From: Actinomycetaceae bacterium
Lineage (GTDB): Bacteria > Actinomycetota > Actinomycetes > Actinomycetales > Actinomycetaceae
DNA: 64,000 nt
Assembly: GCA_030537615.1 (NCBI GenBank)
Contig: JAUNVP010000007.1
Location: 52,227-116,226 of the forward strand
Direction of reading: 5' to 3'
The notes below the pieces were generated by a model. That model did not search any database. It had not been told where the DNA came from and was given only the letters and a program-made list of their open reading frames with translations. Positions 6,698 through 37,573 of this stretch are shown here, in pieces (position 1 is the first letter of the stretch; the number at the start of each line of letters is the position of its first letter). The position numbers and the translations under genes are program-made.

Positions 6698-8032
6698 ATG
6701 GACGCCCAGCAAGAGCACGTACTTCGAGAAATCGCCGAACAAGGCATCCGATTCATCCGGCTGTGGTTCACGGACGTATCCGGTGTGCTCAAAGCTGTGG
6801 CGATCGATCCGGGAGAACTCGAGTCGGCATTTAGCGAGGGCATTGGATTTGACGGGTCGTCGATTGAAGGTTTGACTCGGGTGTACGAGTCGGACATGCT
6901 CCTTAAACCCGATGCGACGACGTTTGCCCTCCTACCGCGTAGATCGGGCGACGAACTCGTTGCTCGAATGTTCTGCGATGTCCTCACCCCCGACGGCCAG
7001 CCGGCTCTATCCGACCCTCGAGGAGTGCTTGAACGCACCCTCGCGAAAGCCGCCGAAATCGGGTTCACCGTCATGGTTCATCCTGAAGTCGAGTTTTACC
7101 TGCTGAAGGCAACTGACGATCCGCTCGCGATTGAGCCGGTAGACAATGCCGGCTACTTCGACCACGTTGCTCGTGATGGCTCCAATGATTTTCGTCGGCG
7201 GGCCGTGCGCACGCTTGAAGATATGGGAATTTCAGTCGAGTTCTCACATCATGAGGGCGGGCCCGGGCAAAATGAAATTGATCTGCGGGCAACTGAGGCT
7301 CTGCGTGGCGCGGACAACATCATGACTCTGCGCACGGTCGTCGAAGAAATCGCGCTGTCAGAAAACCAAGTCGCCACCTTTATGCCCAAGCCGTTTGTTG
7401 ACTACCCCGGCTCGGGTATGCACATGCACATTTCCCTCTTTGAAGGCGAATCGAATGCCTTCTTCGATGCGGCGGGGCAGTACCAGCTATCGAAAACAGG
7501 ACGTCACTTTATTGCTGGGCTCTTGAAACATGCGCGGGAAATCAGCGCGGTCACGAATCAACACGTCAACTCCTACAAGCGTCTGTGGGGCGGGGGAGAG
7601 GCCCCGAGCTACGTGTGTTGGGGGCACAACAACCGGTCGGCGTTAGTACGCGTTCCGCTCTACAAGCCGGATAAAGGGAAATCGGCGCGGATTGAATATC
7701 GCGGCATGGATTCCGCGGCTAATCCGTATCTGGCGATTGCCTGTCTCGTCGCTGCGGGATTAGCGGGTATCGAAGGGAAATACGAGCTTCCCGACGAGGC
7801 TGAGGACGATGTCTGGCAGTTGACCGATTTCGAACGCAAAGCTCTCGGCATCAGCGCTTTGCCACATTCCCTCAAAGATGCAATCGATTCCTTGCGTGAA
7901 TCTGACCTGGTGGCACAGACACTGGGAGAAGAAGCTTTTGATTTTGTCATTCGCGATAAGAATCAAGAGTGGCGGCAATATCGTGCTCAAGTCACTCCCT
8001 GGGAGAGACTGAAATCCATTAGGTTGATGTAG
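6698..8032 (+). CDS. glnA2: glutamine synthetase, GlnA2-type (444 aa)
   Basis: GS catalytic-domain motifs ('HHEGGPGQNEID', 'MHMHISLF', 'NPYL'). Its length and position directly upstream of glnE match actinobacterial glnA2. Confidence 0.8.
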   Translation: MDAQQEHVLREIAEQGIRFIRLWFTDVSGVLKAVAIDPGELESAFSEGIGFDGSSIEGLTRVYESDMLLKPDATTFALLPRRSGDELVARMFCDVLTPDGQPALSDPRGVLERTLAKAAEIGFTVMVHPEVEFYLLKATDDPLAIEPVDNAGYFDHVARDGSNDFRRRAVRTLEDMGISVEFSHHEGGPGQNEIDLRATEALRGADNIMTLRTVVEEIALSENQVATFMPKPFVDYPGSGMHMHISLFEGESNAFFDAAGQYQLSKTGRHFIAGLLKHAREISAVTNQHVNSYKRLWGGGEAPSYVCWGHNNRSALVRVPLYKPDKGKSARIEYRGMDSAANPYLAIACLVAAGLAGIEGKYELPDEAEDDVWQLTDFERKALGISALPHSLKDAIDSLRESDLVAQTLGEEAFDFVIRDKNQEWRQYRAQVTPWERLKSIRLM

Positions 8033-8034
8033 CC

Positions 8035-11016
8035 ATGTCCGGCGACGCAATTTCCCAGACCGCGTCCATTCAAATTGGTTTTGCCGACTTCGGCCGGACC
8101 GGCACGCTCATTAAGCAGCTTCTGTCTGCGTGCCAACTCGACACGCAACCCCGCGAAGCGATGTCTTGGTTTGAGTCCTCAGCAGATCCCGATGCCGCCC
8201 TCCTGACCGCGATTCGTTTGGCTGAAACGGACGCGGACTTGACTCGGCGAGTGTTGTCGAATGAGGAGAATCGGACGCGATTTATTGCGGTGAGCGGTGC
8301 TTCCGTTGCCCTCGCAACCTACCTCGAGTCCCATCCGAATCTTGCCGAATTCGACCTCCCACCGCTACCGCCACCGCGAGAAGCGTGGGGGAGCCGAGGG
8401 GAAGGCTGGGACGGCCAGTTTGATAGGGCTGAGCCCATGATTGCGTGGTTGCGTGCGCAGAGTGTTGATTCAACGGATTCTCTTCGCGCCGCATATTGGC
8501 GAGCTTTACTTCTTATCGCAGCCGAGGATGTCACGGCCTGCGATCGCGTTGCGCGAATGGATCTGCTGACCCGCCAGATCACCGATCTCGTCGATGCCAC
8601 CCTTCAGTTGGCCTACGAACTCGCCTGCGCAACTGTATCGAGGGCCGAAGCAGTAGAGTTCGCCGTCATCGCTATGGGGAAAACCGGGGGCCAAGAACTC
8701 AACTACATTTCCGATGTCGATGTCATCTACCTGATGAACAGCAGAGACGACTCTTTGCCCGACCTCGAATTGTCGGCGATCGCCTCTCAAATTGCCACTG
8801 CCATTGCACTTGCCTGCTCAGGGCCGGGAAATGAACCCCCGCTCTGGACGCTCGATGCTGGCTTACGTCCGGAAGGGCGCGATGGCGCCCTTGTCCGCAC
8901 TATCGAATCGTGTGCTACCTACTACCGGCAGTGGGCGAAAAACTGGGAGTTTCAAGCTCTGATGAAAGCACGACCGTGTGCCGGGGACGCCGCGCTGGGA
9001 GAACGTTTCCTCGCTCTCGTCGATCCGCTTGTATGGCGGGCTGCCACTGCTGATGGCTTCGTCGATAATGTGCGGGACATGCGACAGACCGTCGAGGCGA
9101 ATATCCCGTTGCGGCGGGCGAATCGAGAAATCAAACTTGGTCGCGGAGGATTACGGGACGTCGAATTCACTGTCCAGCTCCTTCAGCTTGTACACGGCAG
9201 AACTGATGAAACGCTACGCGTGCGCAATACCCTGTTGGCCATTGAGCTTCTCTCGGCGGGAGGATACATTGCGCGTACTGATGCGGTGGCTCTCGCCGAT
9301 TGCTATCGGTTCCTCAGAACAGTTGAACACCGCGCCCAGCTTTCACGGATGCGCCGAACCCATCTGATGCCAACCGCCGCGAGTGAACTTCGCAAACTGG
9401 CCCGAGCAATTGACCCGTCGGAATATCCGACGGCGGAAAGTTTGGAACGGCGCTGGCAGGAGATTCGCGACCGGGTGCGCAATCTTCACGAAGCAGTGTT
9501 CTATCGGCCTCTCGTGGAAGCTACTGCTCAACTGTCATCCGATCACATTCTGATGACTCAAGAATCGATCGTCGACCGATTGGCGGCATTCGGCTACCGA
9601 GATCCCGCGGGTGCCTTGCGACACGTGGAAGCGCTGACGCAAGGAACCACCCGACGAGCGACCATTCAACGACACCTTCTGCCAGTTATGCTCGGTTGGT
9701 TAGCAAACGGAGCCGATCCCGATATGGGACTCCTAAACTTTCGTCGACTCTCAGATGAGATCGGCTCATCACACTGGTATCTCGCGCTTTTGCGGGATTC
9801 AGCGGTGGCGGCGCGGCGTTTGTGTGACATTCTTCCTACCTCGACGTTCACCGTCGACGCCCTCATGGCCCAACCTGAATGTGTTAAGTGGCTTGATACC
9901 AACTCGATGCTTGCGCCGCGGGACTTTGCCGTCCTCAACAAAGAATGTGCCGCGCTACTCGATCGACATGAATTCGATGACCGCGCTATCGACCGGATTC
10001 GCTATGTCCGCAATCGAGAAGTGACGCGAGCGGCTATTGCTGATGTGACGCTCGGGCTGGATCCAGACCGAGCACAGACGATGCTGACGCCGGCAACCGA
10101 TGCGGCACTGCTTGGTGCCCTCGATATTGCGCTCGCCACTCACGCTGGAAGTGCAACGGGATTTTCCATGGCTATTGTCGCGATGGGGCGATATGGAGGG
10201 CGAGAGGCTTCCTACGGTTCCGATGCCGATATTATGTTCGTCCACGATCCCGGTTCGCTCAATGCAAGCGAAGCGCAAGAACTTGCCACAACGGTTGCCA
10301 AACACGTCGTTTCACTCCTCACGGGATACGGGACGACACCGAGTATCTCCGTCGATATTGACCTTCGCCCCGAGGGGAAAAACGGTCCGCTGTCACGTAC
10401 TCTGCGCGGCTACGTTGACTACTGGAATTCGTGGGCGGCGACGTGGGAAAAACAAGCTCTTCTTCGGGCTCGCCCGATCGGCGATACTCCGCTGGACCAG
10501 GCCTTTATCGAGGCCGCAGATACAGTTCGATACGCGGAGAGTTTTGACGCCACGATGCTCAAAGATATTCGTCTGCTCAAAGCACGAATGGAAAACGAAC
10601 GACTCCCGCGTGGTATCAAGCCCAGTCACCACGTCAAATTGGGCCCCGGCGGCCTCTCCGATGTCGAATGGCTCATTCAAGTTGAACAGATGCGACATGG
10701 TCACACTATTCCCGCAGCGCGCACAACCTCGACTCTTGTTGCGCTCGACGCCCTTGAAAACGCGGGTGTATTTTCGGCCCGAGAGGCACAGATCCTCCGA
10801 AATGCCTGGAACGTAGCGACAAACATCCGGGCGGGCAACGTATTGGCCACCGGCCGCACCCACGGTCTCGACATTTTGCCTCGCAATCAGCAAGTTGCTT
10901 CAATGGTGGCGGCGATTCTCGGCTACGATCCGAGAAAACCAACACTGTTGAGTGATGACTACCTTCGGCTGGCGCGTCATGCCCGACGCGTCTTTAGTGA
11001 ACGAATGAACATTTAA
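8035..11016 (+). CDS. glnE: bifunctional glutamine synthetase adenylyltransferase / adenylyl-removing enzyme
   Basis: 993 aa with two nucleotidyltransferase domains ('GKTGGQELNYISDVDVIY' and 'GRYGGREASYGSDADIMFV'). Confidence 0.9.
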   Translation: MSGDAISQTASIQIGFADFGRTGTLIKQLLSACQLDTQPREAMSWFESSADPDAALLTAIRLAETDADLTRRVLSNEENRTRFIAVSGASVALATYLESHPNLAEFDLPPLPPPREAWGSRGEGWDGQFDRAEPMIAWLRAQSVDSTDSLRAAYWRALLLIAAEDVTACDRVARMDLLTRQITDLVDATLQLAYELACATVSRAEAVEFAVIAMGKTGGQELNYISDVDVIYLMNSRDDSLPDLELSAIASQIATAIALACSGPGNEPPLWTLDAGLRPEGRDGALVRTIESCATYYRQWAKNWEFQALMKARPCAGDAALGERFLALVDPLVWRAATADGFVDNVRDMRQTVEANIPLRRANREIKLGRGGLRDVEFTVQLLQLVHGRTDETLRVRNTLLAIELLSAGGYIARTDAVALADCYRFLRTVEHRAQLSRMRRTHLMPTAASELRKLARAIDPSEYPTAESLERRWQEIRDRVRNLHEAVFYRPLVEATAQLSSDHILMTQESIVDRLAAFGYRDPAGALRHVEALTQGTTRRATIQRHLLPVMLGWLANGADPDMGLLNFRRLSDEIGSSHWYLALLRDSAVAARRLCDILPTSTFTVDALMAQPECVKWLDTNSMLAPRDFAVLNKECAALLDRHEFDDRAIDRIRYVRNREVTRAAIADVTLGLDPDRAQTMLTPATDAALLGALDIALATHAGSATGFSMAIVAMGRYGGREASYGSDADIMFVHDPGSLNASEAQELATTVAKHVVSLLTGYGTTPSISVDIDLRPEGKNGPLSRTLRGYVDYWNSWAATWEKQALLRARPIGDTPLDQAFIEAADTVRYAESFDATMLKDIRLLKARMENERLPRGIKPSHHVKLGPGGLSDVEWLIQVEQMRHGHTIPAARTTSTLVALDALENAGVFSAREAQILRNAWNVATNIRAGNVLATGRTHGLDILPRNQQVASMVAAILGYDPRKPTLLSDDYLRLARHARRVFSERMNI

Positions 11017-24847: not shown

Positions 24848-24971
24848 GGCCTACTCCTTTGCACAGTCGGGAACATCTCACATTTACTGTATCGGCAATC
24901 GGTGCTGACGTGCAGAGGGAGTTGCGATTTTCTGCTGAGGATTTCAATTGTCGGAACCATAGAATAAGCTA

Positions 24972-24987
24972 TCGAACACACGTTCGA
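24972..24987 (+). promoter_or_regulatory. LexA SOS box (TCGAAC-N4-GTTCGA)
   Basis: Perfect TCGAACACACGTTCGA palindrome 31 nt upstream of the imuA' start. Matches the actinobacterial/Gram-positive LexA operator consensus. Confidence 0.8.
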
Positions 24988-25017
24988 AATAGTTGGGGGA
25001 GAAAGCGATGAGAGAAA

Positions 25018-25524
25018 ATGAATCGCGTCGCTACCGTGGTGCGACTTTCAGGGGGACACACAAAAACTGAGCGATTGGAGGCCGCGCGTCGCAGCCTCGC
25101 GGACATTGAAAACACGATAGGTGTTCAACCGGTATCGAATAATCTGCGCGGACAGGTATGGCACGTGAGTGGAGGGAACGAACAGTTATTTCGAGCTCTT
25201 GCGTCCGTACAGAACACCGGGCAGTGGATTGGGTTCGCCGGGCTGCCTTATCCAGGATGGTGTGCGGCTCAAGAAGCCGGAATAGATCTGCGTCGAGTTC
25301 TTGTTGTCGAAGAGGTGGATCCGTATCCGGCGCGTGTGCTCGCCACACTTATTGATGGGCTCGACATTGTTGTCTGCGGAGATAGTGGTCTTGAACGTCG
25401 TCACTATCGTTCCCTCGGAGGACGTGCGCGCTCACGCGGTTGTCTCGTCATAACTACTCACCCGTGGATTGGGGTTTCCAAACCCTGGCTACGCGGCAAC
25501 GTTCGGCATTTGGAGGCCGTATGA
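25018..25524 (+). CDS. imuA: ImuA'-like (inactive RecA-fold) mutasome accessory protein
   Basis: 168 aa. SOS box upstream, 4-nt ATGA overlap with imuB, and a weak RecA-like core ('WIGFAGLPYPGWCAAQEAGIDLRRVLVV'). The call rests mainly on context. Confidence 0.55.
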   Translation: MNRVATVVRLSGGHTKTERLEAARRSLADIENTIGVQPVSNNLRGQVWHVSGGNEQLFRALASVQNTGQWIGFAGLPYPGWCAAQEAGIDLRRVLVVEEVDPYPARVLATLIDGLDIVVCGDSGLERRHYRSLGGRARSRGCLVITTHPWIGVSKPWLRGNVRHLEAV

Positions 25525-27182
25525 AACGCGTTGTACTCGTGTGGTTTCCCGATTGGGAAACCAATGCGCTCGTCATCGATTGCCCACCGGGAACTCCCGC
25601 TGTATCAGTTGGTCAAGGGCGCGTATTACACGCCACCATACGGGCCCGCTCTTACGGTATTCGTGCGGGAATGCGGGTTTCCCTGGCCCAACACCTGTGC
25701 GCCGATCTCGTGACTGTTCCCTATGATGAAGCGCGCAGTGCACGGTCTTTTTACGCGGTTCTCGATGCGTTAGATGAAGTTTCGGCCCACGTATGTGCCA
25801 TTGCGCCGGGAATCGCATGGATGCCGGCATCGGCTGCTCGGTGGTTCGGTAGTGAAGAAATCCTCTGCGAGAGAGCTCTCGACGCAGTCGCGCTTCATAC
25901 GGGAAGTGAATGCAGTATCGGAATTGGTTCGGGGCTACTGGGTGCGTGGGCTGCGGCGCGCCGCGGTGAAATCGCCACGGATGACAGCGCTATCCGTCAG
26001 CTTAAGATCGCCGACCTTGTTCCACTCATTCCCGGAGATCGCGTCGCAGAAGTTGTGGATTCTCTTCGCGTGTTGGGAATCGTGTCGGTAGGCGACCTTA
26101 TCGATTTTGGTCCCGCCACCGTCGCGTCGCGTTTCGGTGACGTCGGGTTAGCGCTTGAACGCTTGCTGACGCGGGACGTTCCCCTGCAAATTGACAGTGC
26201 TGTCGTCGAGGACGACCTCAGTGAAACCATCGAATTTGCGTCGCCTGTTAGTGATACTGCGATCGTCGTCGGGCATTTTATTTCAGTTGCGACAGCAATC
26301 GTCAAAGGAATGGTTAATAGGCAAGTGTCATCAGCAGCTATCCGTATCAGCGCGACAATGACTACTCCGCGTGCAGAAGTAACGCGAGAGCGGCTGTGGT
26401 CGTTGACAGATTTCCCTACGCCACGCGATATAACCGACCGGGTGCGTTGGCAAACCCAAGGGTGGATTGACGCTATCAATCGGACTTCTTTGCCCGAATA
26501 CGATATTGACTCACAGGACGTGTACGGTCTGACGTCACTAACTGTCACCGTCATTGATCCTTTCCCCATCGACGCACTGGCAGCGCGATTGTGGGGCCAG
26601 CGCAGTGAAGAAGACACCCGAGCGTCAACAACAGCGTTTCGGCTACAGGCCCTTCTCGGTGTCGATCGCGTGCAGCGTCCCCGTATCATTGATGGCTTTG
26701 ACCCCGTTACGCGAGTGCTCTTAGAAACGTGGGGAACGGTCAGTGAACAGCAAGCATGGGAAAGATGGGAGCTTCCTCCGCGGTGGCGTGACCACGCAAC
26801 CTACTCGTCACGGCAACAGTGGAACGGGCGCATGCGCGGCGAATCGCCCGCCACAGTTTTCGATGAGGGCGTTCTCGCTACGTTGCTTGATGCACAAGGC
26901 CAGCCTGTCACAATCGAAACGACAGGTGCTCTCTGTGTCTCTCCCACCCGTCTCATGCTTAACGATGGCCACCCGCTACTGCATTCAATCGGTTTACGTG
27001 CGGGAGAATCGTACCCCGTCGAACGGGTGCGCGGTCCGTGGCCGATTCTTGGACGCTGGTGGGAGGACGACAGCGGGATTCGAGGAACGAGAGCATGGCT
27101 CACGGTGATTCCTCGGGACTCGGTTGCTCTTCTTCTTGCCTGGAAAAGCGGTCAATGGACAGTGGTTGCACTATGGTACTGA
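25521..27182 (+). CDS. imuB: ImuB (catalytically dead Y-family polymerase-like mutasome subunit)
   Basis: Start trimmed to 'MKRVVLVWFPDWETNAL'. Y-family palm-like N-terminus without the acidic catalytic triad. Sits upstream of dnaE2. Confidence 0.8.
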   Translation: MKRVVLVWFPDWETNALVIDCPPGTPAVSVGQGRVLHATIRARSYGIRAGMRVSLAQHLCADLVTVPYDEARSARSFYAVLDALDEVSAHVCAIAPGIAWMPASAARWFGSEEILCERALDAVALHTGSECSIGIGSGLLGAWAAARRGEIATDDSAIRQLKIADLVPLIPGDRVAEVVDSLRVLGIVSVGDLIDFGPATVASRFGDVGLALERLLTRDVPLQIDSAVVEDDLSETIEFASPVSDTAIVVGHFISVATAIVKGMVNRQVSSAAIRISATMTTPRAEVTRERLWSLTDFPTPRDITDRVRWQTQGWIDAINRTSLPEYDIDSQDVYGLTSLTVTVIDPFPIDALAARLWGQRSEEDTRASTTAFRLQALLGVDRVQRPRIIDGFDPVTRVLLETWGTVSEQQAWERWELPPRWRDHATYSSRQQWNGRMRGESPATVFDEGVLATLLDAQGQPVTIETTGALCVSPTRLMLNDGHPLLHSIGLRAGESYPVERVRGPWPILGRWWEDDSGIRGTRAWLTVIPRDSVALLLAWKSGQWTVVALWY

Positions 27183-27297
27183 ACAATTGGCTACCCTACG
27201 GAGATGTGTTGAGGTGGTAGGGCTCACTGATGAAAAACTCGCGTGAGGTCTCGCATGTGGTAATAGTCGTAAGTTGGGATAATTTTGGAGGGCGATA

Positions 27298-27927
27298 GTG
27301 GCGAAACTGTATTTCCGCTACGGGGCGATGAACTCAGGAAAATCAACCGCACTGCTTCAAGCCGCATATAACTACGAAGAACGCGGGCAACGCGTCGTCC
27401 TCGCTAAACCGTCAATCGACACCAAGGGAGATGCACATATCGTTTCCCGTCTCGGAGTTACTCGCACAGTTGATCTGCTCGTCGCAGCCGGTGAGAACTT
27501 CCGCGACGCATTCCACCAGGTGGCATCCGGAGATGATCCCGATGCGCTCGTCCCGCACGTGGATACTCTCCCCGTCGCCGCGCTCCTCATCGACGAAGCA
27601 CAGTTCTTCACGCCCGAACAGATTGATGACATGTTCCGCGTAGCAATCCTCGACGACGTGCCGGTTTTGGCCTACGGAATACGAACAGACTTCCAAACGG
27701 TCGCTTTCCCCGGTGCTCGTCGCTTACTCGAAATCGCTCATTCGATTGAAGAACTGAAAACAATCTGCCGATGCGGACGTAAAGCGGTTTTCAATGGTCG
27801 AAAAGTTGATGGCAGATTCGTGTTTGACGGTGATCAGGTAGCCATAGACGGCGTCGATGTCACGTACGAATCACTGTGCGGGGCCTGTTACCTCGATGAG
27901 TCCGGGGGAGAGCTCGAACCTCGATGA
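27298..27927 (+). CDS. tdk: thymidine kinase
   Basis: P-loop 'GAMNSGKST' and a C-terminal zinc ribbon 'CRCG...CGAC'. GTG start. Confidence 0.9.
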   Translation: MAKLYFRYGAMNSGKSTALLQAAYNYEERGQRVVLAKPSIDTKGDAHIVSRLGVTRTVDLLVAAGENFRDAFHQVASGDDPDALVPHVDTLPVAALLIDEAQFFTPEQIDDMFRVAILDDVPVLAYGIRTDFQTVAFPGARRLLEIAHSIEELKTICRCGRKAVFNGRKVDGRFVFDGDQVAIDGVDVTYESLCGACYLDESGGELEPR

Positions 27928-30900
27928 CAGAACTCACTGCCCTCGAACGCACCCTGGCGACGATGAACGATGATGACATTATCGCTCTCGTCGGTCCAGC
28001 AACGTATGGGCAAGGCTTGACGAGCTATGAAAGAAACGACGTCATCAGCCTCGAGTTCAATGAATCACGCGATCGTATGATCGCGAAAGTGCGCGGCGCA
28101 GGAATGACCTACACATGCTGGTTTGGCCAAGCGGGAAATCGAGTCCGCGACCTCGAACTCACCTGTGCGTGTACAACGGGCGTGTACTGCAAACACGCAA
28201 TAGCAGCGCTGTGGAAAGCGCGCACCGAGGTGCGTCGTCCAGAAGAAAGCTGGCGCACACTGCTCACGCCTTTTCTCCACGTAGCGGTCGAGGGACAACC
28301 GCTCGCACTCGTTCTCGAAACAGCGGGTAATCAGTTTTCTCTCTCGCCACGTCGAGCTGGCGCTCGCGGGAAGTGGGTGAGTCAGCGCGCCTCGTGGGCC
28401 GATCTCACCTCCACTCAATGGGCCTCTGTGACCGACGGGATCCGCAGTGACCATCTAACGGTCGTGCGGTCGATCTGGAACCAATCACGCCGCTCAATGA
28501 CGTGGCATAGTCCAAATACAGTTCCTCTGTCCTCGCTCGGAGCTCAAGCGCTGGAACTTCTTCTACACGCGCAGCAATCGGGTGTTCAATTGCTCCTTAA
28601 TCCGGGAGAACGGGAACTGACGGTCAACCCGGCGCCACTGTCTTTTCACCTCGCGCATGATGTCACGGATAGCGGTGCTGATCTGACCGTTGTACTGACG
28701 GACGGCAAGAACGAATACAGTCGTTATGCGCTACTCGACATGACCCCACCGTTGGCCCTGCTACAAGAAACACTCTCTCCCATTGCCCCAGGAAACGAAG
28801 CGATGCTTGATGTCGCCATCAAACATCGTCGGATTCACGTCCCGACAGAGGATCTGTCCGACTTCTACATGAACTATGCGCCACAGATGGGAGAGTGCAT
28901 CGATGTTCACGCTCGTCCCCTCGACGGCCCGCATCTGATCGGAACCGTCAGTTCCGATGGTGATGAACTGGTCATTAAATGGTCTGTTGCCTATCGCAGC
29001 GAGCAGTCACAAACTCTTCTTCCTGTCGACGATGCGCTCGTGCGCTGGCGCCAGGACCGTTCGGTAATCACGAGTGTGTTGAGGCGGATATCCCAAGCAT
29101 GTGAACCATACATCCCGGCAGCGGCTGTCGGGCGGAGTGATCGGCTACGAGGAGATGCCATTCCCGAGTTTTTGAACCGAGCTCGGGCAGTTGAAACGAC
29201 AATCGACGAACTCGAATGGGTCTTTGATGAAGAGGTCAATCAGATCGCGGTCAGTCACGCCCCGATGACAATCGAAGCGAGCGCAATCGATATCGATGAC
29301 CCCGACTGGTTTGACCTCAAACTCACCATCACGGTGGGTGGTGAACAGATTCCGATTAAGGATGTCATCCTGGCGGTAGCTGCGGGACGCACGTGGGTTT
29401 GCTCGCCGGAGGGCGTGTGGGTGCAGATCGATTCCGAACAGATTGAGACACTACTGTCTATCATCGCCGAGCAAGGGGCTGATGATGATGGCGATCTAAT
29501 TCGTCTTCCGGGAAAGCGGATGGGAGTGCTCAACCAGCTCGAGGATCTTGGCGCGGAACTGTCGGGGACAAGTCCGTGGCTCGATCGTTTCCGCACCTTG
29601 ACTGCTGTCGACGAGGTGCGTGAGCTCCCACAACCGCACGGAACAACGCTACGCGATTACCAAAGGGCGGGAGTTGCTTGGCTGGATACTGTGACATCGC
29701 ACGGTTTTGGAGCAATTCTGGCCGACGATATGGGACTGGGGAAAACGCTCCAAATCTTGACGCTGATTCAGGCGAAGAAAGACCGTGGGGAACTCACCAA
29801 AGGCGTTTTAGTTTGTGCTCCGACCTCTGTGGTCTCGACATGGGTCAATGAAGCACACCGGTTCTTCCCCGATTTGTCGATTGAACATGTCCGTGGGAGC
29901 TCAAAGAAGCGCGAATATCAAGTGGAAGAACTACTCGAGACGCATGACATCATCGTGACATCGTGGACGCTACTGCGACTGGACGCGGACGAATACGGGC
30001 AACTCGAGCTTGACGGGGCTATTTTTGATGAAGCGCAGGCGATGAAGAATCCGGCGACTCATCAAAATCAAGCTGCCAGGAATCTCGGCGCACAGTGGGC
30101 CATCGCGGCTACCGGCACGCCAATCGAAAATACTGTGACGGATTTGTGGGCGATCATGAATGTCGTGAATCCGGGACTTCTTCCCGGACTTAAACGTTTT
30201 AATCACCACTATCGCCGCCCCATTGAAACCGATGGTGACCACCGCACTCTTGAGCGTCTTCACAAGCTGACCGAACCATTTATGCGCAGACGAACGAAAG
30301 ATCTTGTCGCAACGGAGCTTCCTGACAAGATTGAACAGACAATCAGTATCGAACTCGATCCGGCTCATCAGCGGGCGTATGATCGCTATCTCAACGATCA
30401 ACGCGGTCGAGTGCTCGGCTTGCTTGAGAATCCGCGAGAAAATGCCACTTCAATCCTCGCAGCGTTGACAAAGCTACGCATGCTCGCCCTCGATCCGGCG
30501 CTGATTAACGCTGATTGGGAGGGGGGAGATTCGGCAAAAACGCAGCTCCTTGTCGATCATCTGATTTCTCTCACCGGACGCGGGCACCGAGCACTCGTGT
30601 TTTCCCAGTTCACCAGTTATCTCAAACGGCTTGCCCGAGCAGTTAACGATGCGGGGATCACCTCGACTTATCTTGACGGTACAACCCGTAATCGCGATCA
30701 CGTGATCGCGCGATTCAAAGAGGGCGATGCCCAAGTATTCCTCATTTCCCTTAAAGCGGGAGGCACAGGACTGACCCTCACTGAAGCCGACTACGTCTAC
30801 GTCATGGATCCGTGGTGGAATCCGGCGGTCGAAACTCAAGCCATCGATCGAGCGCATCGGATCGGTCAACAAAAAACAGTGAATGTGTATCGCCTCTGTG

Positions 30901-31022
30901 CCGCCAACACGATTGAGCATAAGGTCATGGCGCTTCAAGAACACAAGCGTTCGATTGTCGATCGAGTAATGACGTCGACGACTCAGCTCAGCACGAGTGA
31001 ACTAGCAGATCTCCTCTCCTAG
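27924..31022 (+). CDS. SNF2-family DNA-dependent ATPase/helicase with N-terminal SWIM zinc finger
   Basis: SWIM 'CACTTGVYCKHAIAALW'. SNF2 motifs 'LADDMGLGKTLQ', 'DEAQAMKN', 'TGTPIEN', and a C-terminal 'GGTGLTLTEADYVYVMDPWWNPAVETQAIDRAHRIGQ'. Overlaps the tdk stop by 4 nt. Confidence 0.85.
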   Translation: MTELTALERTLATMNDDDIIALVGPATYGQGLTSYERNDVISLEFNESRDRMIAKVRGAGMTYTCWFGQAGNRVRDLELTCACTTGVYCKHAIAALWKARTEVRRPEESWRTLLTPFLHVAVEGQPLALVLETAGNQFSLSPRRAGARGKWVSQRASWADLTSTQWASVTDGIRSDHLTVVRSIWNQSRRSMTWHSPNTVPLSSLGAQALELLLHAQQSGVQLLLNPGERELTVNPAPLSFHLAHDVTDSGADLTVVLTDGKNEYSRYALLDMTPPLALLQETLSPIAPGNEAMLDVAIKHRRIHVPTEDLSDFYMNYAPQMGECIDVHARPLDGPHLIGTVSSDGDELVIKWSVAYRSEQSQTLLPVDDALVRWRQDRSVITSVLRRISQACEPYIPAAAVGRSDRLRGDAIPEFLNRARAVETTIDELEWVFDEEVNQIAVSHAPMTIEASAIDIDDPDWFDLKLTITVGGEQIPIKDVILAVAAGRTWVCSPEGVWVQIDSEQIETLLSIIAEQGADDDGDLIRLPGKRMGVLNQLEDLGAELSGTSPWLDRFRTLTAVDEVRELPQPHGTTLRDYQRAGVAWLDTVTSHGFGAILADDMGLGKTLQILTLIQAKKDRGELTKGVLVCAPTSVVSTWVNEAHRFFPDLSIEHVRGSSKKREYQVEELLETHDIIVTSWTLLRLDADEYGQLELDGAIFDEAQAMKNPATHQNQAARNLGAQWAIAATGTPIENTVTDLWAIMNVVNPGLLPGLKRFNHHYRRPIETDGDHRTLERLHKLTEPFMRRRTKDLVATELPDKIEQTISIELDPAHQRAYDRYLNDQRGRVLGLLENPRENATSILAALTKLRMLALDPALINADWEGGDSAKTQLLVDHLISLTGRGHRALVFSQFTSYLKRLARAVNDAGITSTYLDGTTRNRDHVIARFKEGDAQVFLISLKAGGTGLTLTEADYVYVMDPWWNPAVETQAIDRAHRIGQQKTVNVYRLCAANTIEHKVMALQEHKRSIVDRVMTSTTQLSTSELADLLS

Positions 31023-31026
31023 AGAG

Positions 31027-31042
31027 TCGAACGTATGTTCGA
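31027..31042 (+). promoter_or_regulatory. LexA SOS box (TCGAAC-N4-GTTCGA)
   Basis: Perfect TCGAACGTATGTTCGA, 4 nt after the SNF2 stop and 13 nt before the dnaE2 start. Confidence 0.8.
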
Positions 31043-31054
31043 TAAACTGGGGAG

Positions 31055-34000
31055 GTGTTGCCCTACGCCGAACTTCACGCGCACAGCGCCTACAGTTTTC
31101 TCCACGGCGCAGATTTACCTCAAGTCCTTGTTCGACGCGCTTACGAACTCGGTCTTGAGGCAATCGCCGTCCTCGACTATGACGGTATGTATTCAGCGGT
31201 CCAAACGGCTACCGCCGCCCGTGAGCTGGGGATGCGAACCGTGCAGGGAACTGAACTGCGCTTGGATAATCACACCCATCTGCCGATACTTGCACGGAGC
31301 GTCGCGGGATATTACGACCTGTGTGCTGCAGTCTCGGAGTTCCAACTGGCGCACGAAGAAAAGACCGAAACAATTTTTGGGCTTGAGGAGCTCGCGCAAT
31401 ACTCAAACGGCCAGTGGATGATACTGACCGGGTCGAGTCGCGGGCCTGTGCGCGCCGCGCTTGCCACGGGGAAACTCGAAGCCGCCGAGCGGGAGATCGC
31501 CCGGCTGAAAGACTTGTTCGGCTCCGATCGCGTCCTCATTGAAACAACTGTGACAACACCTGAAGAGGAGGACGAACTGGTCCACGTGCTCGCGGACATG
31601 GCTCGTCGGACACGCACTCGCTTGGTGGCGACAACGGCGGCACGATCGGCCTCTTCTCGATCGGTTCTGCGGGCACACGTTGTGCGGGCTATTCAACTTG
31701 GTGGAACTCTGAGCGAAGTCGAACCCTATCTCGAAGCCTATCCGCCGATTCTGCGCTCGGCCGAAGAGATGCAACGTATTCATCGTCACTATCCTGAGGC
31801 AGTGGAGGAGGCTGCTGTTGTTGCGGATGAGTGCAGTTTTGATCTGCGACTGATTGCTCCTGATTTACCGCCGTGTCAGACCCCGCCGGGATATACCGAA
31901 GAAACGTGGTTGCGAGAATGTGCCTATCGGGGAGCACGTGAGCGATACGGCACCCGTGAGGAGTATCCGAAAGCGTGGGAAATCATAGATCGCGAGCTTG
32001 CGATTATTATTCGCTTGGGATTTGCCGGGTATTTTCTCATTGTCAAAGAAATCGTGGATTACTGTCATGAGGAGAGAATCCTGTGTCAGGGGCGTGGGTC
32101 AGCAGCTAATTCGGCTGTCTGCTACGCGTTAGGAATCACGGCAGTTGACGCTGTGCGGCACCGCATGCTGTTCGAACGATTTTTATCTCCTGACCGGAGC
32201 GGTCCACCGGATATTGATATCGATATCGAATCTGATCGCCGAGAACTTGTTATCCAACACATCTATACCAAGTACGGTCGACGGTACGCCGCGCAGGTTG
32301 CTAACGTCATTTCCTATCGTCCCAAGTCCGCCATTCGTGATGTAGCAAAAGCTTTTGGGTATCCCGAAGAACTTGCCCGGCAGTGGGGGAAGGGAATCTC
32401 TCGCGTTCCCGCGGATCCTCGTGTCATGTCTATGGCCGCTTCGTTACAACATCTTCCGCGGCATTTGGGGATTCATCCAGGTGGCATCGTGCTCACTCGT
32501 CAACCTGTTTCTCACCTATGTCCCGTTCAGTGGGGGACAAAGAAAGGCCGAACCGTTCTTCAATGGGATAAAGATGACTGCGCCGAGGCGGGGTTCGTGA
32601 AATTCGATCTTCTCGGTCTCGGAATGCTCACAGCGCTACGAAAGATGTTTGATTCATTAGCGGCTCGAGGGATTGGGGCCCCCGATGGGAAACCGTACGA
32701 TTTGTACAACCTTCCGCAGGATGATCCTCTCGTCTACAACCTGCTGTGCGCGGCCGATACGGTCGGAGTGTTCCAAGTGGAGTCACGCGCCCAAATGAAT
32801 ACACTTCCACGGTTACAGCCTCGCTGTTTTTACGACCTCGTGGTAGAAGTTGCGCTCATTCGTCCCGGACCTATTCAAGGTCAGGCGGTTAATCCGTATC
32901 TTCGCCGCAGACGAGGGCGTGAAAAAGTCACCTACCCGCATCCGCTACTCAAGCCCGCGTTGGAAAAAACTCTGGGCGTCCCTCTGTTCCAAGAACAGCT
33001 CATGCAGATTGCTACCGATGCCGCGGGATTTACCGCCTCGCAAGCAGATAAGCTCCGTAAAGCGATGGGATCCAAGCGCAGTGATGAGCGAATGAAACAA
33101 CTGCGTCCGCAACTGTTCGCTGGGCTCGCAAAGAACGGGATTACCGGTAGCGCGGCAGAGGAGATTGTCGATAGTCTCAATGCTTTTGCCGACTTCGGAT
33201 TTCCCGAATCGCACGCGTTTTCTTTTGCCTATATCGTCTACGCCTCGGCGTGGATGAAAGTGCATTACCCAGAAGATTTTTACGCGGCAATCTTGTCCTC
33301 GCAACCGATGGGATTTTATTCGTCGGCATCTCTCGTTGAGGATGCGCGCCGCCACGGAATATGCGTTGGGTGCGTCAGCGTCCTCTATTCTCAAGTGGAG
33401 ACAGCAGTGGAAAAACATGACGATGGCGGGCTTCGGCAGAAGGTAAAGCCGCCGGTTCAACCGGATCCAACGCTATGTATCCGATTGGGATTGAATACCG
33501 TTAAAGGACTCGATCACTCCGCGTGTCAACGCATCGTCGATGCGCGGAGAAAACGCCAGTACAGTTCTTTGGCTGATCTGGGAGCACGCGCCCGCCTGAC
33601 AACAGGCGATCTTGAGAAACTGGCGCTTGCCGGAGCTCTTGATGATTTGGTGAGTAGTCGACGTGAGGGCATGTGGAGTGCCCCACTTGTGGCGCAACAA
33701 TCGGGGGAGCAGATGACTCTACCGGGAATCGAGTGGCCTGCTCCTGCCGACTTCCCGTCGTTGACTGCCGTAGAAGAAATTCAAACTGACTACGCTATGA
33801 CCGGACTCAGTGTTCAACGGCATCCGATGGAACTGGTTCGCCGTACACTCGGTGCGAAGGTCAAGACATGTGATGAAGTGCCTTTGGTTGAGAGAGGACG
33901 GCGCATCCGCGTTGCGGGAATCATTACTCACCGTCAGCGACCTCATACGGCTGCGGGCACGGTATTTCTTTCACTCGAGGACGAAACGGGTTTAGCTAAT

Positions 34001-34171
34001 ATTATTTGTCAAAAGAATGTGTGGAAACGCTTTCGGCCTATCGCGATGACGGCGTCGGCCATCATCGTCAGAGGAGTGGTTGAAACCGAAGACGGTTCAC
34101 ACGCGATCGTTGCCGATAAGCTAGAGCTCTGTCAGGTTCCGGTATCGTCTCGGTCGCGAGACTTTCGGTAG
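31055..34171 (+). CDS. dnaE2: error-prone DNA polymerase DnaE2 (C-family)
   Basis: PHP domain 'ELHAHSAYSFLHGA' and pol III alpha core ('FDLLGLGMLT'). ~1038 aa. GTG start overlapping a GGAGG ribosome-binding site. Confidence 0.9.
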   Translation: MLPYAELHAHSAYSFLHGADLPQVLVRRAYELGLEAIAVLDYDGMYSAVQTATAARELGMRTVQGTELRLDNHTHLPILARSVAGYYDLCAAVSEFQLAHEEKTETIFGLEELAQYSNGQWMILTGSSRGPVRAALATGKLEAAEREIARLKDLFGSDRVLIETTVTTPEEEDELVHVLADMARRTRTRLVATTAARSASSRSVLRAHVVRAIQLGGTLSEVEPYLEAYPPILRSAEEMQRIHRHYPEAVEEAAVVADECSFDLRLIAPDLPPCQTPPGYTEETWLRECAYRGARERYGTREEYPKAWEIIDRELAIIIRLGFAGYFLIVKEIVDYCHEERILCQGRGSAANSAVCYALGITAVDAVRHRMLFERFLSPDRSGPPDIDIDIESDRRELVIQHIYTKYGRRYAAQVANVISYRPKSAIRDVAKAFGYPEELARQWGKGISRVPADPRVMSMAASLQHLPRHLGIHPGGIVLTRQPVSHLCPVQWGTKKGRTVLQWDKDDCAEAGFVKFDLLGLGMLTALRKMFDSLAARGIGAPDGKPYDLYNLPQDDPLVYNLLCAADTVGVFQVESRAQMNTLPRLQPRCFYDLVVEVALIRPGPIQGQAVNPYLRRRRGREKVTYPHPLLKPALEKTLGVPLFQEQLMQIATDAAGFTASQADKLRKAMGSKRSDERMKQLRPQLFAGLAKNGITGSAAEEIVDSLNAFADFGFPESHAFSFAYIVYASAWMKVHYPEDFYAAILSSQPMGFYSSASLVEDARRHGICVGCVSVLYSQVETAVEKHDDGGLRQKVKPPVQPDPTLCIRLGLNTVKGLDHSACQRIVDARRKRQYSSLADLGARARLTTGDLEKLALAGALDDLVSSRREGMWSAPLVAQQSGEQMTLPGIEWPAPADFPSLTAVEEIQTDYAMTGLSVQRHPMELVRRTLGAKVKTCDEVPLVERGRRIRVAGIITHRQRPHTAAGTVFLSLEDETGLANIICQKNVWKRFRPIAMTASAIIVRGVVETEDGSHAIVADKLELCQVPVSSRSRDFR

Positions 34172-34182
34172 CGAGGAGAAAA

Positions 34183-34671
34183 GTGGCCATAGAAATCGAG
34201 CGGAAGTTCCTCATCGTCTCGGATGGGTGGAAGAAACATATTGCGCGTACCGAAGAATTGGCGCAGGGGTATTTGGCCGCATCGCCACGTTGTCTCGTGC
34301 GGGTACGAGCGTCGCAAGACCGTGGTTGGTTGACGGTTAAAGGAGGTCAAATCGGTGATACTGACACTTTGACCCGTCTCGAGTTTGAATACGAAATCCC
34401 CTGTGAACACGCTCGCGATATGTTGGGTGCTTTCGCGCTGAGTTCAGTCGCAAAGACTCGTTATACACTCGATTTACCGCAGTATCAGTGGACGGTCGAT
34501 GTCTTTCACGGTGCCAATGACGGATTAGTAATTCTTGAAATCGAAGGCCCCGATGTTGAGATGTTGGGCGATAAAGATTTGCCCGAATGGGTGGGGGAGG
34601 ACGTCAGTGCAGATCCACGAATGTCCAATGCGGCACTGTCGCACAATCCCTACTCGCAGTGGGGAAACTAG
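34183..34671 (+). CDS. CYTH-domain (triphosphate tunnel metalloenzyme) protein
   Basis: N-terminal 'EIERKFL' ExExK signature, 162 aa. Sits 11 nt downstream of dnaE2. Confidence 0.7.
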   Translation: MAIEIERKFLIVSDGWKKHIARTEELAQGYLAASPRCLVRVRASQDRGWLTVKGGQIGDTDTLTRLEFEYEIPCEHARDMLGAFALSSVAKTRYTLDLPQYQWTVDVFHGANDGLVILEIEGPDVEMLGDKDLPEWVGEDVSADPRMSNAALSHNPYSQWGN

Positions 34672-37403: not shown

Positions 37404-37478
37404 CGGATTGGAAAGCTAACGATTCTTCGTGCTAAAGTTTTCTTCGTTGCCGACGAACGAAAGTTCTGGCAACCACCT

Positions 37479-37567
37479 GCGCGGGTGGCGGAATAGGTAG
37501 ACGCGCTAGCTTGAGGTGCTAGTTCCTAATTTAAACGGGAGTGGGGGTTCAAGTCCCCCTCCGCGCA
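37479..37567 (+). tRNA. tRNA-Leu (anticodon GAG)
   Basis: 7-bp acceptor stem GCGCGGG/TCCGCGC (one G-U pair). Anticodon stem CTAGC/GCTAG with loop TTGAGGT. Long variable arm. T-arm GGGGG-TTCAAGT-CCCCC. Discriminator A. CCA not encoded. Confidence 0.85.
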
Positions 37568-37573
37568 CAATAG

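Follow-up and report, generated by a model that had tools for sequence, protein, structure and literature searches.

The mutasome genes imuA', imuB and dnaE2 were found in a six-gene array within a 64,000-nucleotide (nt) stretch of Actinomycetaceae DNA from contig JAUNVP010000007.1 (hereafter the window, meaning this whole stretch). They are accompanied there by three extra genes: tdk, encoding a thymidine kinase, a gene for a SWIM/SNF2 ATPase (SNF2 below) and a gene for a CYTH protein. The best explanation, in which we place moderate confidence, is that the array comprises two ordinary LexA-repressed units, imuA'-imuB and dnaE2, lying in a syntenic Actinomycetaceae stretch, and that the three extra genes are neighbours rather than obligate parts. 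This reading is carried by what the genes were identified as, by the operators and by the pattern seen among relatives; predicted promoters, leaderless starts and read-through, together with the putative functions of all the proteins, complete it. The features of the array are as follows (aa, amino acids; SD, Shine-Dalgarno sequence).

24960..24965, + strand: TAGAAT, putative -10 element of the imuA' promoter, 6 nt upstream of box 1
24972..24987, no strand: SOS box 1, LexA-type operator TCGAACACACGTTCGA, one of two perfect matches in 64 kb
25018..25524, + strand: imuA' (168 aa), NCBIfam NF058630 'DnaE2-dependent mutagenesis accessory factor ImuA'', 83.3 bits (cut-off 65)
25521..27182, + strand: imuB (553 aa), predicted catalytically dead Y-family polymerase homologue, Pfam IMS 50.4 bits
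27183..27297, + strand: imuB-tdk spacer, 115 nt, with its 3' 50 nt kept; TAAGTT 27270-27275, GATAAT 27278-27283, SD GGAGGG 27287-27292
27298..27927, + strand: tdk, thymidine kinase (209 aa), NF003300 248.7 bits (cut-off 195), Pfam TK 115.6 bits
27924..31022, + strand: SWIM/SNF2 ATPase (1032 aa) of the HelZ/YwqA architectural type, SNF2-rel_dom 193.6 bits, Helicase_C 80.7 bits, SWIM 20.5 bits (cut-off 19.6)
31027..31042, no strand: SOS box 2, LexA-type operator TCGAACGTATGTTCGA, the other perfect match in 64 kb
31043..31048, + strand: TAAACT, putative -10 element of the dnaE2 promoter, abutting box 2 and 6 nt before GTG 31055
31055..34171, + strand: dnaE2 (imuC), error-prone polymerase (1038 aa), NF004225 1263 bits (cut-off 939)
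34183..34671, + strand: CYTH/triphosphate-tunnel protein (162 aa), PF01928 39.4 bits (cut-off 23.2), SD GAGGAG in the 11-nt gap after dnaE2

The mutasome units and their operators

The six open reading frames (ORFs) lie head to tail on the + strand, and a gene call on a public contig was identical. Families were assigned by profile searches with Pfam and NCBIfam, with each score above its curated cut-off. The genes imuA' and imuB overlap by 4 nt (ATGA), as do tdk and SNF2 (ATGA); the remaining gaps measure 115 nt between imuB and tdk, 32 nt between SNF2 and dnaE2, and 11 nt between dnaE2 and the CYTH gene. A preliminary description of the stretch, made from its letters, had proposed this order, both overlaps, the last two gaps, and two perfect LexA operators 31 and 13 nt upstream of the imuA' and dnaE2 starts. 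The ORFs and profile scores bear out the order, the sequence reading agrees on the junctions, and a pattern scan confirmed the operators. GC content across the block is flat (53-57%), so it gives no sign of a recently acquired island.

The operator pattern TCGAACNNNNGTTCGA (TCGAAC-N4-GTTCGA) has exactly two matches in the 64 kb, at 24972-24987 and 31027-31042, where shuffled sequences gave a mean of 0.05 and 0 of 100 shuffles reached two. From the ends of the boxes to the start codons there are 31 nt for imuA' and 13 nt for dnaE2. The position of box 1 is kept in Gleimia, Actinomyces and metagenome-assembled relatives, and box 2 stands directly upstream of dnaE2 in all lineages in which this junction was read.

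Promoters were judged by TANNNT geometry because the sigma-70 consensus does not suit actinobacteria; a scan with that consensus gave fewer hits than shuffles, with none at intergenic sites. In each of the seven related lineages compared, the imuA' box is preceded at 1-9 nt by a TANNNT hexamer, so the transcript would start within the operator. The transcription start of Mycobacterium tuberculosis Rv3395c has been mapped inside its SOS box (PMC3381160). Upstream of dnaE2, a box and a TANNNT hexamer were found in 7/7 lineages, with the called start codon 6 nt later in six of them; the window reads TAAACT (31043-31048), GGGGAG and then GTG 31055. This is the geometry of actinobacterial leaderless mRNA, and a leaderless start of dnaE2 is probable.

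The products of the two units are those of a mutasome. Pfam MT3502_N was present for ImuA' in the gene call. The imuB start, ATG 25521, was set by homology and by the independent gene call, the longest ORF opening at TTG 25440. ImuB scored no more than 38 bits against DinB equivalog models, whose cut-offs exceed 250. When a profile of eight ImuB sequences was aligned with DNA polymerase IV (7yll), an invariant P96-G97-I fell over the catalytic S-I-D-E; with the catalytic D-E lost in this way, ImuB is predicted to be catalytically dead, as ImuB proteins are. The beta-clamp-binding motif of M. tuberculosis ImuB is QLPLWG-like, and here L357-W358-G359 is invariant in eight lineages at the expected place of that motif, with different preceding residues (AARLWG). 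DnaE2 has PHP, DNA_pol3_alpha, finger, HHH_6 and OB domains (Pfam). Judged by these profiles and motifs, the mutasome part of the locus is canonical, with ImuA', a dead ImuB, DnaE2 and LexA-type operators.

Two further observations concern the operators and the imuA' start. Within 24995-25070, a strong SD, GGGGGAG (24995-25001), stands 6 nt before an ATG at 25008; the ORF that begins there has 20 codons and is read in a different frame from imuA', and the annotated imuA' ATG at 25018 is 16 nt from the same SD. This SD-ATG geometry 10 nt before the called start is also present in the relatives L086 and L004, and may represent an upstream ORF or translational coupling. Bare GAAC-N4-GTTC cores occur four times in the window, against 1.8 expected; one of them, GAACGAAAGTTC (37455-37466), has no flanking TC/GA bases and lies 13 nt upstream of the only tRNA gene of the window, a tRNA-Leu with anticodon GAG (37479-37568). 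Its position there is probably due to chance.

Conservation of the order and the place of the extra genes

The comparison was based on about 170 related loci. Contexts of SNF2 homologues, from 81% down to 38% identity, were read singly, and a metagenome scan centred on ImuB gave 80 more loci, which were annotated by tblastn; clustering of ImuB at 70% identity yielded 10 lineages. Gleimia hominis, several Actinomyces species and uncultured Actinomycetaceae share the order imuA'-imuB-(tdk)-SNF2-...-dnaE2 and have boxes in the two corresponding positions. In 9/10 lineages (about 75 contigs), imuB and dnaE2 have SNF2 between them. The tdk gene occupies the imuB-dnaE2 slot in seven of the ten and is missing from the main Actinomyces cluster, and a CYTH gene follows dnaE2 in one. 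The core order, as these loci indicate, is a feature of the family and not an accident of one strain. The preliminary description had named a chance juxtaposition restricted to this strain as one outcome that would overturn it, and this does not hold for the core order, which recurs across nine Actinomycetaceae lineages. As for the extra genes, their linkage extends beyond one lineage for SNF2 and tdk, and not for CYTH.

The arrangements differ in detail. Gleimia hominis has imuA'-imuB-tdk-SNF2-dnaE2 without CYTH, at junctions of -1, 21, -4 and 39 nt, and two uncultured relatives share the start of the array, the 81%-identical one adding CYTH. Three Actinomyces-type contigs carry imuA'-imuB-SNF2; in two of them an alcohol dehydrogenase gene on the opposite strand comes next, before dnaE2, and the third ends in a truncated gene matched to DnaE2 by tblastn. 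Another relative has imuA'-imuB-tdk-SNF2, then DUF2975 and helix-turn-helix (HTH) genes, and then dnaE2. The SNF2-dnaE2 slot thus appears permissive, as it takes an opposite-strand alcohol dehydrogenase gene or DUF2975 and HTH genes. One locus, L106 (5957-15604), has imuA'-imuB followed by a 1130-aa ORF without a Pfam match and by glycosyltransferase genes that replace SNF2 and dnaE2. The usual order is found in L121 and L168, which are closely related to it, and the L106 arrangement may be a rearrangement or an assembly chimera.

A synteny control was used to ask how much such adjacency tells. In the ImuB-centred loci, the unrelated flanking genes PEBP (65/65), SpoU (55/56), orf175 (46/49) and HAD (39/43) were in place no less often than SNF2 (60/69), with DnaE2 at 52/56; MarR belongs to these stable flanking genes as well. 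The whole region of 15-20 kb is syntenic, and adjacency alone therefore carries little functional information. The preliminary description had suggested that the extra genes and the mutasome make up one functional module. The comparison speaks against this, since unrelated flanks are as syntenic or more so and SNF2, tdk and CYTH each drop out independently.

Such losses are seen in both directions. At the equivalent site, Actinomyces sp. B33 carries orf175-SpoU-SNF2-HAD-MarR and lacks PEBP, imuA', imuB and dnaE2. The group L156-L169 keeps imuA'-imuB, tdk and dnaE2 and has no SNF2 in the slot, which instead holds an opposite-strand PAP2 phosphatase gene, SatD, MFS and DHDPS genes and a DUF222-HNH gene. 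Because the opposite-strand PAP2 gene lies between imuB and tdk, tdk cannot be co-transcribed with imuB in that lineage. The DUF222-HNH gene (L162 7948-10659; also L156 13614-16268) encodes about 900 aa and ends 8 nt before dnaE2 with no box between them, and dnaE2 may be co-transcribed with it in this SNF2-less lineage. The DUF222-HNH pair may correspond to the 13E12 repeat family of M. tuberculosis. Several 13E12 repeat members are LexA targets (PMC3381160).

The sequence directly before SNF2 points in the same direction. In every locus outside the group of the window and Gleimia, covering about 67 contigs and five ImuB lineages, SNF2 is preceded by TAGACT (or TAGAGT/TAAACT)-N6-ATG, unaccompanied by an SOS box. 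The hexamer is a TANNNT occupying -12 to -7 relative to the start codon's A, as in L005, L007 and L088 (each at 9989-10003), in L089 (6135-6149) and in about 67 further loci. The signal also holds in L088, L099, L121 and L168, though the surrounding spacer is divergent, and it is kept in Actinomyces sp. B33. It looks like a LexA-independent leaderless promoter of SNF2 in most relatives. In L121 (5797-6653) and L168 (11561-12481), about 900 nt separate imuB from SNF2, with no assignable ORF among them, and TAGACT/TAGAGT-N6-ATG still stands before SNF2.

The SNF2 protein itself has an intact motor with invariant motifs (Walker A GxGKT, DEAQ/DExx, Helicase_C) and a SWIM CxCxnCxH zinc module. The best solved match of the motor is the Sulfolobus SNF2 core (E 1e-74); in a Foldseek search with the full model, the top solved match was ZorD (8qy7), followed by generic remodellers. 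The best partial NCBIfam hits were the pneumococcal pilus-regulating Snf2 and the SCO1167 family, with equivalog cut-offs unmet (374 vs 1100; 370 vs 1200). The N-terminal 560 aa match 348 cluster representatives, mostly of about 1000-1200 aa, and residues ~1-1030 match proteins of Georgenia, a Mycobacterium sp. metagenome-assembled genome, Nocardioides and others at 31-35% identity. A genome scan with an SNF2 alignment gave at least 80 loci, about 45 of them full-length or nearly so from other Actinomycetota (among the matches listed, Georgenia, the Mycobacterium sp. assembly, Nocardioides, Promicromonospora, Arthrobacter, Microbacterium, Kocuria and Rothia); at least three Actinomycetaceae genomes were among its matches, the family-level survey resting mostly on metagenome contigs. 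None of these about 45 loci, among the matches listed, had ImuA', ImuB or a close DnaE2 within 10 kb, and one (L047) had a 26% DnaE-type match within that distance. A full TCGAAC-N4-GTTCGA near SNF2 was likewise found in none of these listed loci, and the bare GAAC-N4-GTTC core in three. Since homologues are widespread without mutasome or operators, SNF2 is the local member of a broad SWIM-SNF2 family of the HelZ/YwqA type.

In architecture, SNF2 is likened to M. tuberculosis HelZ (Rv2101), Bacillus subtilis YwqA and the pneumococcal pilus-repressing Snf2, which share the N-terminal SWIM module, the C-terminal SNF2 motor and a length of about 1000-1100 aa; unlike the gene studied here, these relatives have no reported adjacency to imuB or dnaE2. 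YwqA is poorly characterised and RNA-polymerase-associated (PMC7385302). By analogy, the nearest studied relatives would point to transcription and RNA polymerase, not to repair. A search of SNF2 for clamp-binding motifs (Q-x-x-L-x-x-F or QLxLF-like patterns) gave no match. M. tuberculosis helZ was considered as a LexA target and rejected: the SOS box nearby is assigned to Rv2100, a 13E12-repeat gene, and the paper does not discuss helZ (PMC3381160). The main text of the S. venezuelae LexA regulon paper does not mention SNF2.

The tdk product, judged by its profile scores, is a standard thymidine kinase. In the spacer before tdk, a terminator scan found no hairpin with a T-run, and folding was no better than in shuffles (z = 0.20 in the window and -1.14 in L086, the 81%-identical relative). 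Between these two loci, the 3' ~50 nt of the spacer are ~94% identical and the 5' half ~55%, and the conserved 3' part suggests a promoter there. A small hairpin with a GAAAAAC loop and no T-run (window 27223-27247; L086 about 7758-7792) is common to the otherwise divergent 5' halves.

The CYTH protein begins with VAIEIERKF, an ExExK motif, and its closest solved chains are 3typ and 2fbl (NE1496), with E about 1e-9. The latter is an inorganic triphosphatase. The protein resembles the NeuTTM-type CYTH inorganic triphosphatases represented by these chains in size (153-162 aa), in the ExExK motif and in aligning end to end; it differs in that identity is low (E about 1e-9) and the linkage to dnaE2 is limited to the lineage of the window. 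Among the loci surveyed, CYTH follows dnaE2 only in the window and in L086, and the linkage is, on this distribution, recent and local. Since it lies 11 nt downstream with its own SD, the CYTH gene is very probably co-transcribed with dnaE2.

The sub-lineage of the window and Gleimia differs from the other relatives upstream of SNF2. The TAGACT-N6-ATG signal is missing in the window, L086, L004, L090 and Gleimia; tdk and SNF2 overlap by 4 nt in the window, L086 and Gleimia, and otherwise tdk lies just upstream. With no signal of its own, and with tdk overlapping or abutting it, SNF2 would depend for its expression on transcription entering tdk. In Gleimia, where the imuB-tdk spacer is only 21 nt long, read-through is the simplest source of tdk-SNF2 expression. 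Read-through induction of tdk-SNF2 is plausible for the lineage of the window as well.

Proposed expression of the locus and competing explanations

On the reading we favour, the first unit would be transcribed from the -10 element TAGAAT just upstream of box 1, where bound LexA would cover the transcription start, and would encode ImuA' and a dead, putatively clamp-binding ImuB. The second would use TAAACT, which abuts box 2, and would give a probably leaderless dnaE2 mRNA from GTG 31055, most likely with CYTH on the same transcript. Upon damage, RecA-stimulated cleavage of LexA would free both promoters, and ImuA', ImuB and DnaE2 would carry out error-prone lesion bypass; these steps are established for the mycobacterial system. 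The tdk and SNF2 genes would provide housekeeping thymidine salvage and a HelZ/YwqA-type translocase, SNF2 being expressed in most relatives from its own LexA-independent leaderless promoter. For the lineage of the window, a weak promoter located in the conserved 3' stretch of the spacer between imuB and tdk, plus read-through from the SOS promoter, is proposed as the probable source, because no terminator was found after imuB, the SNF2 signal is missing, and tdk and SNF2 overlap. Some damage induction of tdk-SNF2 would then be a side effect of position.

Several observations weigh against this reading. Even where protein identity is as low as 38%, imuB and SNF2 still adjoin on the same strand, in most lineages across gaps of just 37-155 nt, and a functional link would produce the same pattern. 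The junctions of Gleimia hominis (-1, 21 and -4 nt) leave little room for a promoter besides the SOS one. In the lineage of the window the helicase's own promoter signal has been lost, which could reflect recruitment into the SOS unit. The promoter and leaderless-start calls rest on hexamer geometry, and the purine-rich 6 nt before the SNF2 ATG could be a weak ribosome-binding site on read-through RNA. Furthermore, many of the metagenome contigs are redundant, amounting to 10 lineages at 70% ImuB identity.

A competing idea is that all six genes form one damage-inducible module, in which tdk, SWIM/SNF2 and CYTH would work with ImuA', ImuB and DnaE2, for example with SNF2 acting in front of the mutasome to clear or remodel stalled forks or RNA polymerase. 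It can appeal to the tight one-strand junctions, the lack of a terminator, the two perfect operators bracketing the array, the imuB-(tdk)-SNF2 adjacency in 9/10 lineages, the 21-nt and overlapping junctions of Gleimia, the loss of the SNF2 signal in the window, Gleimia and L090 lineages, and the 11-nt CYTH gap, which leaves no room for a promoter. However, the unrelated flanking genes are equally syntenic; SNF2 is found without mutasome genes at the site in Actinomyces sp. B33, and the mutasome without SNF2 in the slot in the L156 group; and most lineages have a box-free TAGACT-N6-ATG before SNF2. In addition, imuB, a close DnaE2 and an SOS box are all lacking beside the homologues listed from elsewhere, an opposite-strand PAP2 gene parts tdk from imuB in one lineage, CYTH is confined to a single lineage, and SNF2 matched none of the clamp-binding patterns searched. 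Such a module is thus rather unlikely. Some damage induction of tdk, SNF2 and CYTH is plausible in the lineage of the window, and would more likely be a by-product of position than a sign of shared function. A narrower version confined to the window-Gleimia sub-lineage holds that a HelZ-type SWIM/SNF2 protein, whose gene stands downstream of imuA'-imuB, has lost its own promoter signal and overlaps or adjoins tdk, was recruited into the LexA regulon as a bacterial counterpart of the eukaryotic Rad5/HLTF coupling between SNF2 proteins and translesion synthesis (TLS), with tdk and CYTH adjusting nucleotide or polyphosphate pools; this is a speculation that we would give little credence.

The opposite possibility is that the units are insulated: transcription from imuA' would end after imuB, tdk-SNF2 would be constitutive from the 115-nt spacer, and none of the extra genes but possibly CYTH would respond to damage. 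The conserved 3' 50 nt of the spacer with TAAGTT/GATAAT and an SD, the independent SNF2 promoter signal in most relatives, and the rapid divergence of the 5' half, as expected of non-functional spacer, are consistent with it; but the spacer has no hairpin with a T-run and a fold energy no better than that of shuffles, and in Gleimia it is only 21 nt long. Full insulation is therefore rather doubtful. A role of SNF2 in anti-phage defence, as a ZorD- or DpdE-like component lying in the locus by chance, was suggested by PADLOC DpdE and ZorD models matching residues about 460-1030 and by ZorD (8qy7) as top Foldseek match. Yet it is mostly the generic SNF2 motor that these matches cover, the score with the NCBIfam ZorD model is 239 where the cut-off is 1500, a Pfam search detected no nuclease domain, and the gene has a fixed chromosomal site across the whole family, unlike a mobile defence island. 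As the gene tables of nine loci also hold no ZorABC or Dpd partner genes, this role was rejected as highly improbable. That the set came together by chance in this strain agrees with the finding of the full set, CYTH included, only in the window and its close relative L086; the core order with both boxes in 9/10 lineages and about 75 contigs leaves such an accident next to no credibility.

Relation to known systems and significance

The two units closely resemble the split mutasome of mycobacteria (imuA'-imuB, Rv3395c-Rv3394c; dnaE2, Rv3370c), with the same ImuA', dead ImuB and DnaE2 and with two TCGAAC-N4-GTTCGA-type operators, one per unit. In M. tuberculosis, imuA'-imuB and dnaE2 lie at separate loci (PMC3901139), whereas here the units share a strand and only about 3.9 kb separates them, tdk and SWIM/SNF2 lying in between and CYTH after dnaE2. 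The canonical imuA-imuB-imuC (dnaE2) 'adaptive mutagenesis' cassette is likewise a LexA-controlled TLS cassette; here ImuA' replaces ImuA and non-TLS genes are interposed. Almost all configurations of imuA-imuB-imuC exist (Erill et al. 2006, summarised in PMC3901139). LexA-controlled imuA(')-imuB-dnaE2 cassettes, frequently in split or rearranged form, are thus already known (PMC3901139). What is new is the family-wide placement of tdk and SWIM-SNF2 between the units, the fused junctions in one sub-lineage, and CYTH after dnaE2. No description of an imuB, dnaE2 and SNF2 composition was found in the literature, and the comparative papers on the mutasome do not mention SNF2, tdk or CYTH neighbours; the remark in the preliminary description that this composition was not known to be characterised is matched by the searchable literature, in which no describing paper was found.

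Actinomyces naeslundii has been listed with a lone imuC (PMC3901139, section 6, citing Erill et al. 2006). In all Actinomyces-type loci read here, imuA'-imuB is present 4-5 kb upstream of dnaE2, with SNF2 and the opposite-strand dehydrogenase gene between them. Actinomyces-type loci thus carry imuA'-imuB, at odds with the older 'lone imuC' description, and the separation by SNF2 and the dehydrogenase gene may explain why imuA'-imuB was missed earlier.

In sum, the mutasome matters for damage-induced drug resistance in actinobacteria, and to find a helicase retained next to it across a family gives an inexpensive, testable lead on the open question of mutasome composition. The lead is weak, because SNF2 behaves like a passenger in a syntenic block. 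Gleimia hominis, a cultured organism, is suited to the strongest version of the module hypothesis. For the family as a whole, the leaderless promoters predicted for dnaE2 and SNF2 would insulate both genes from upstream read-through.

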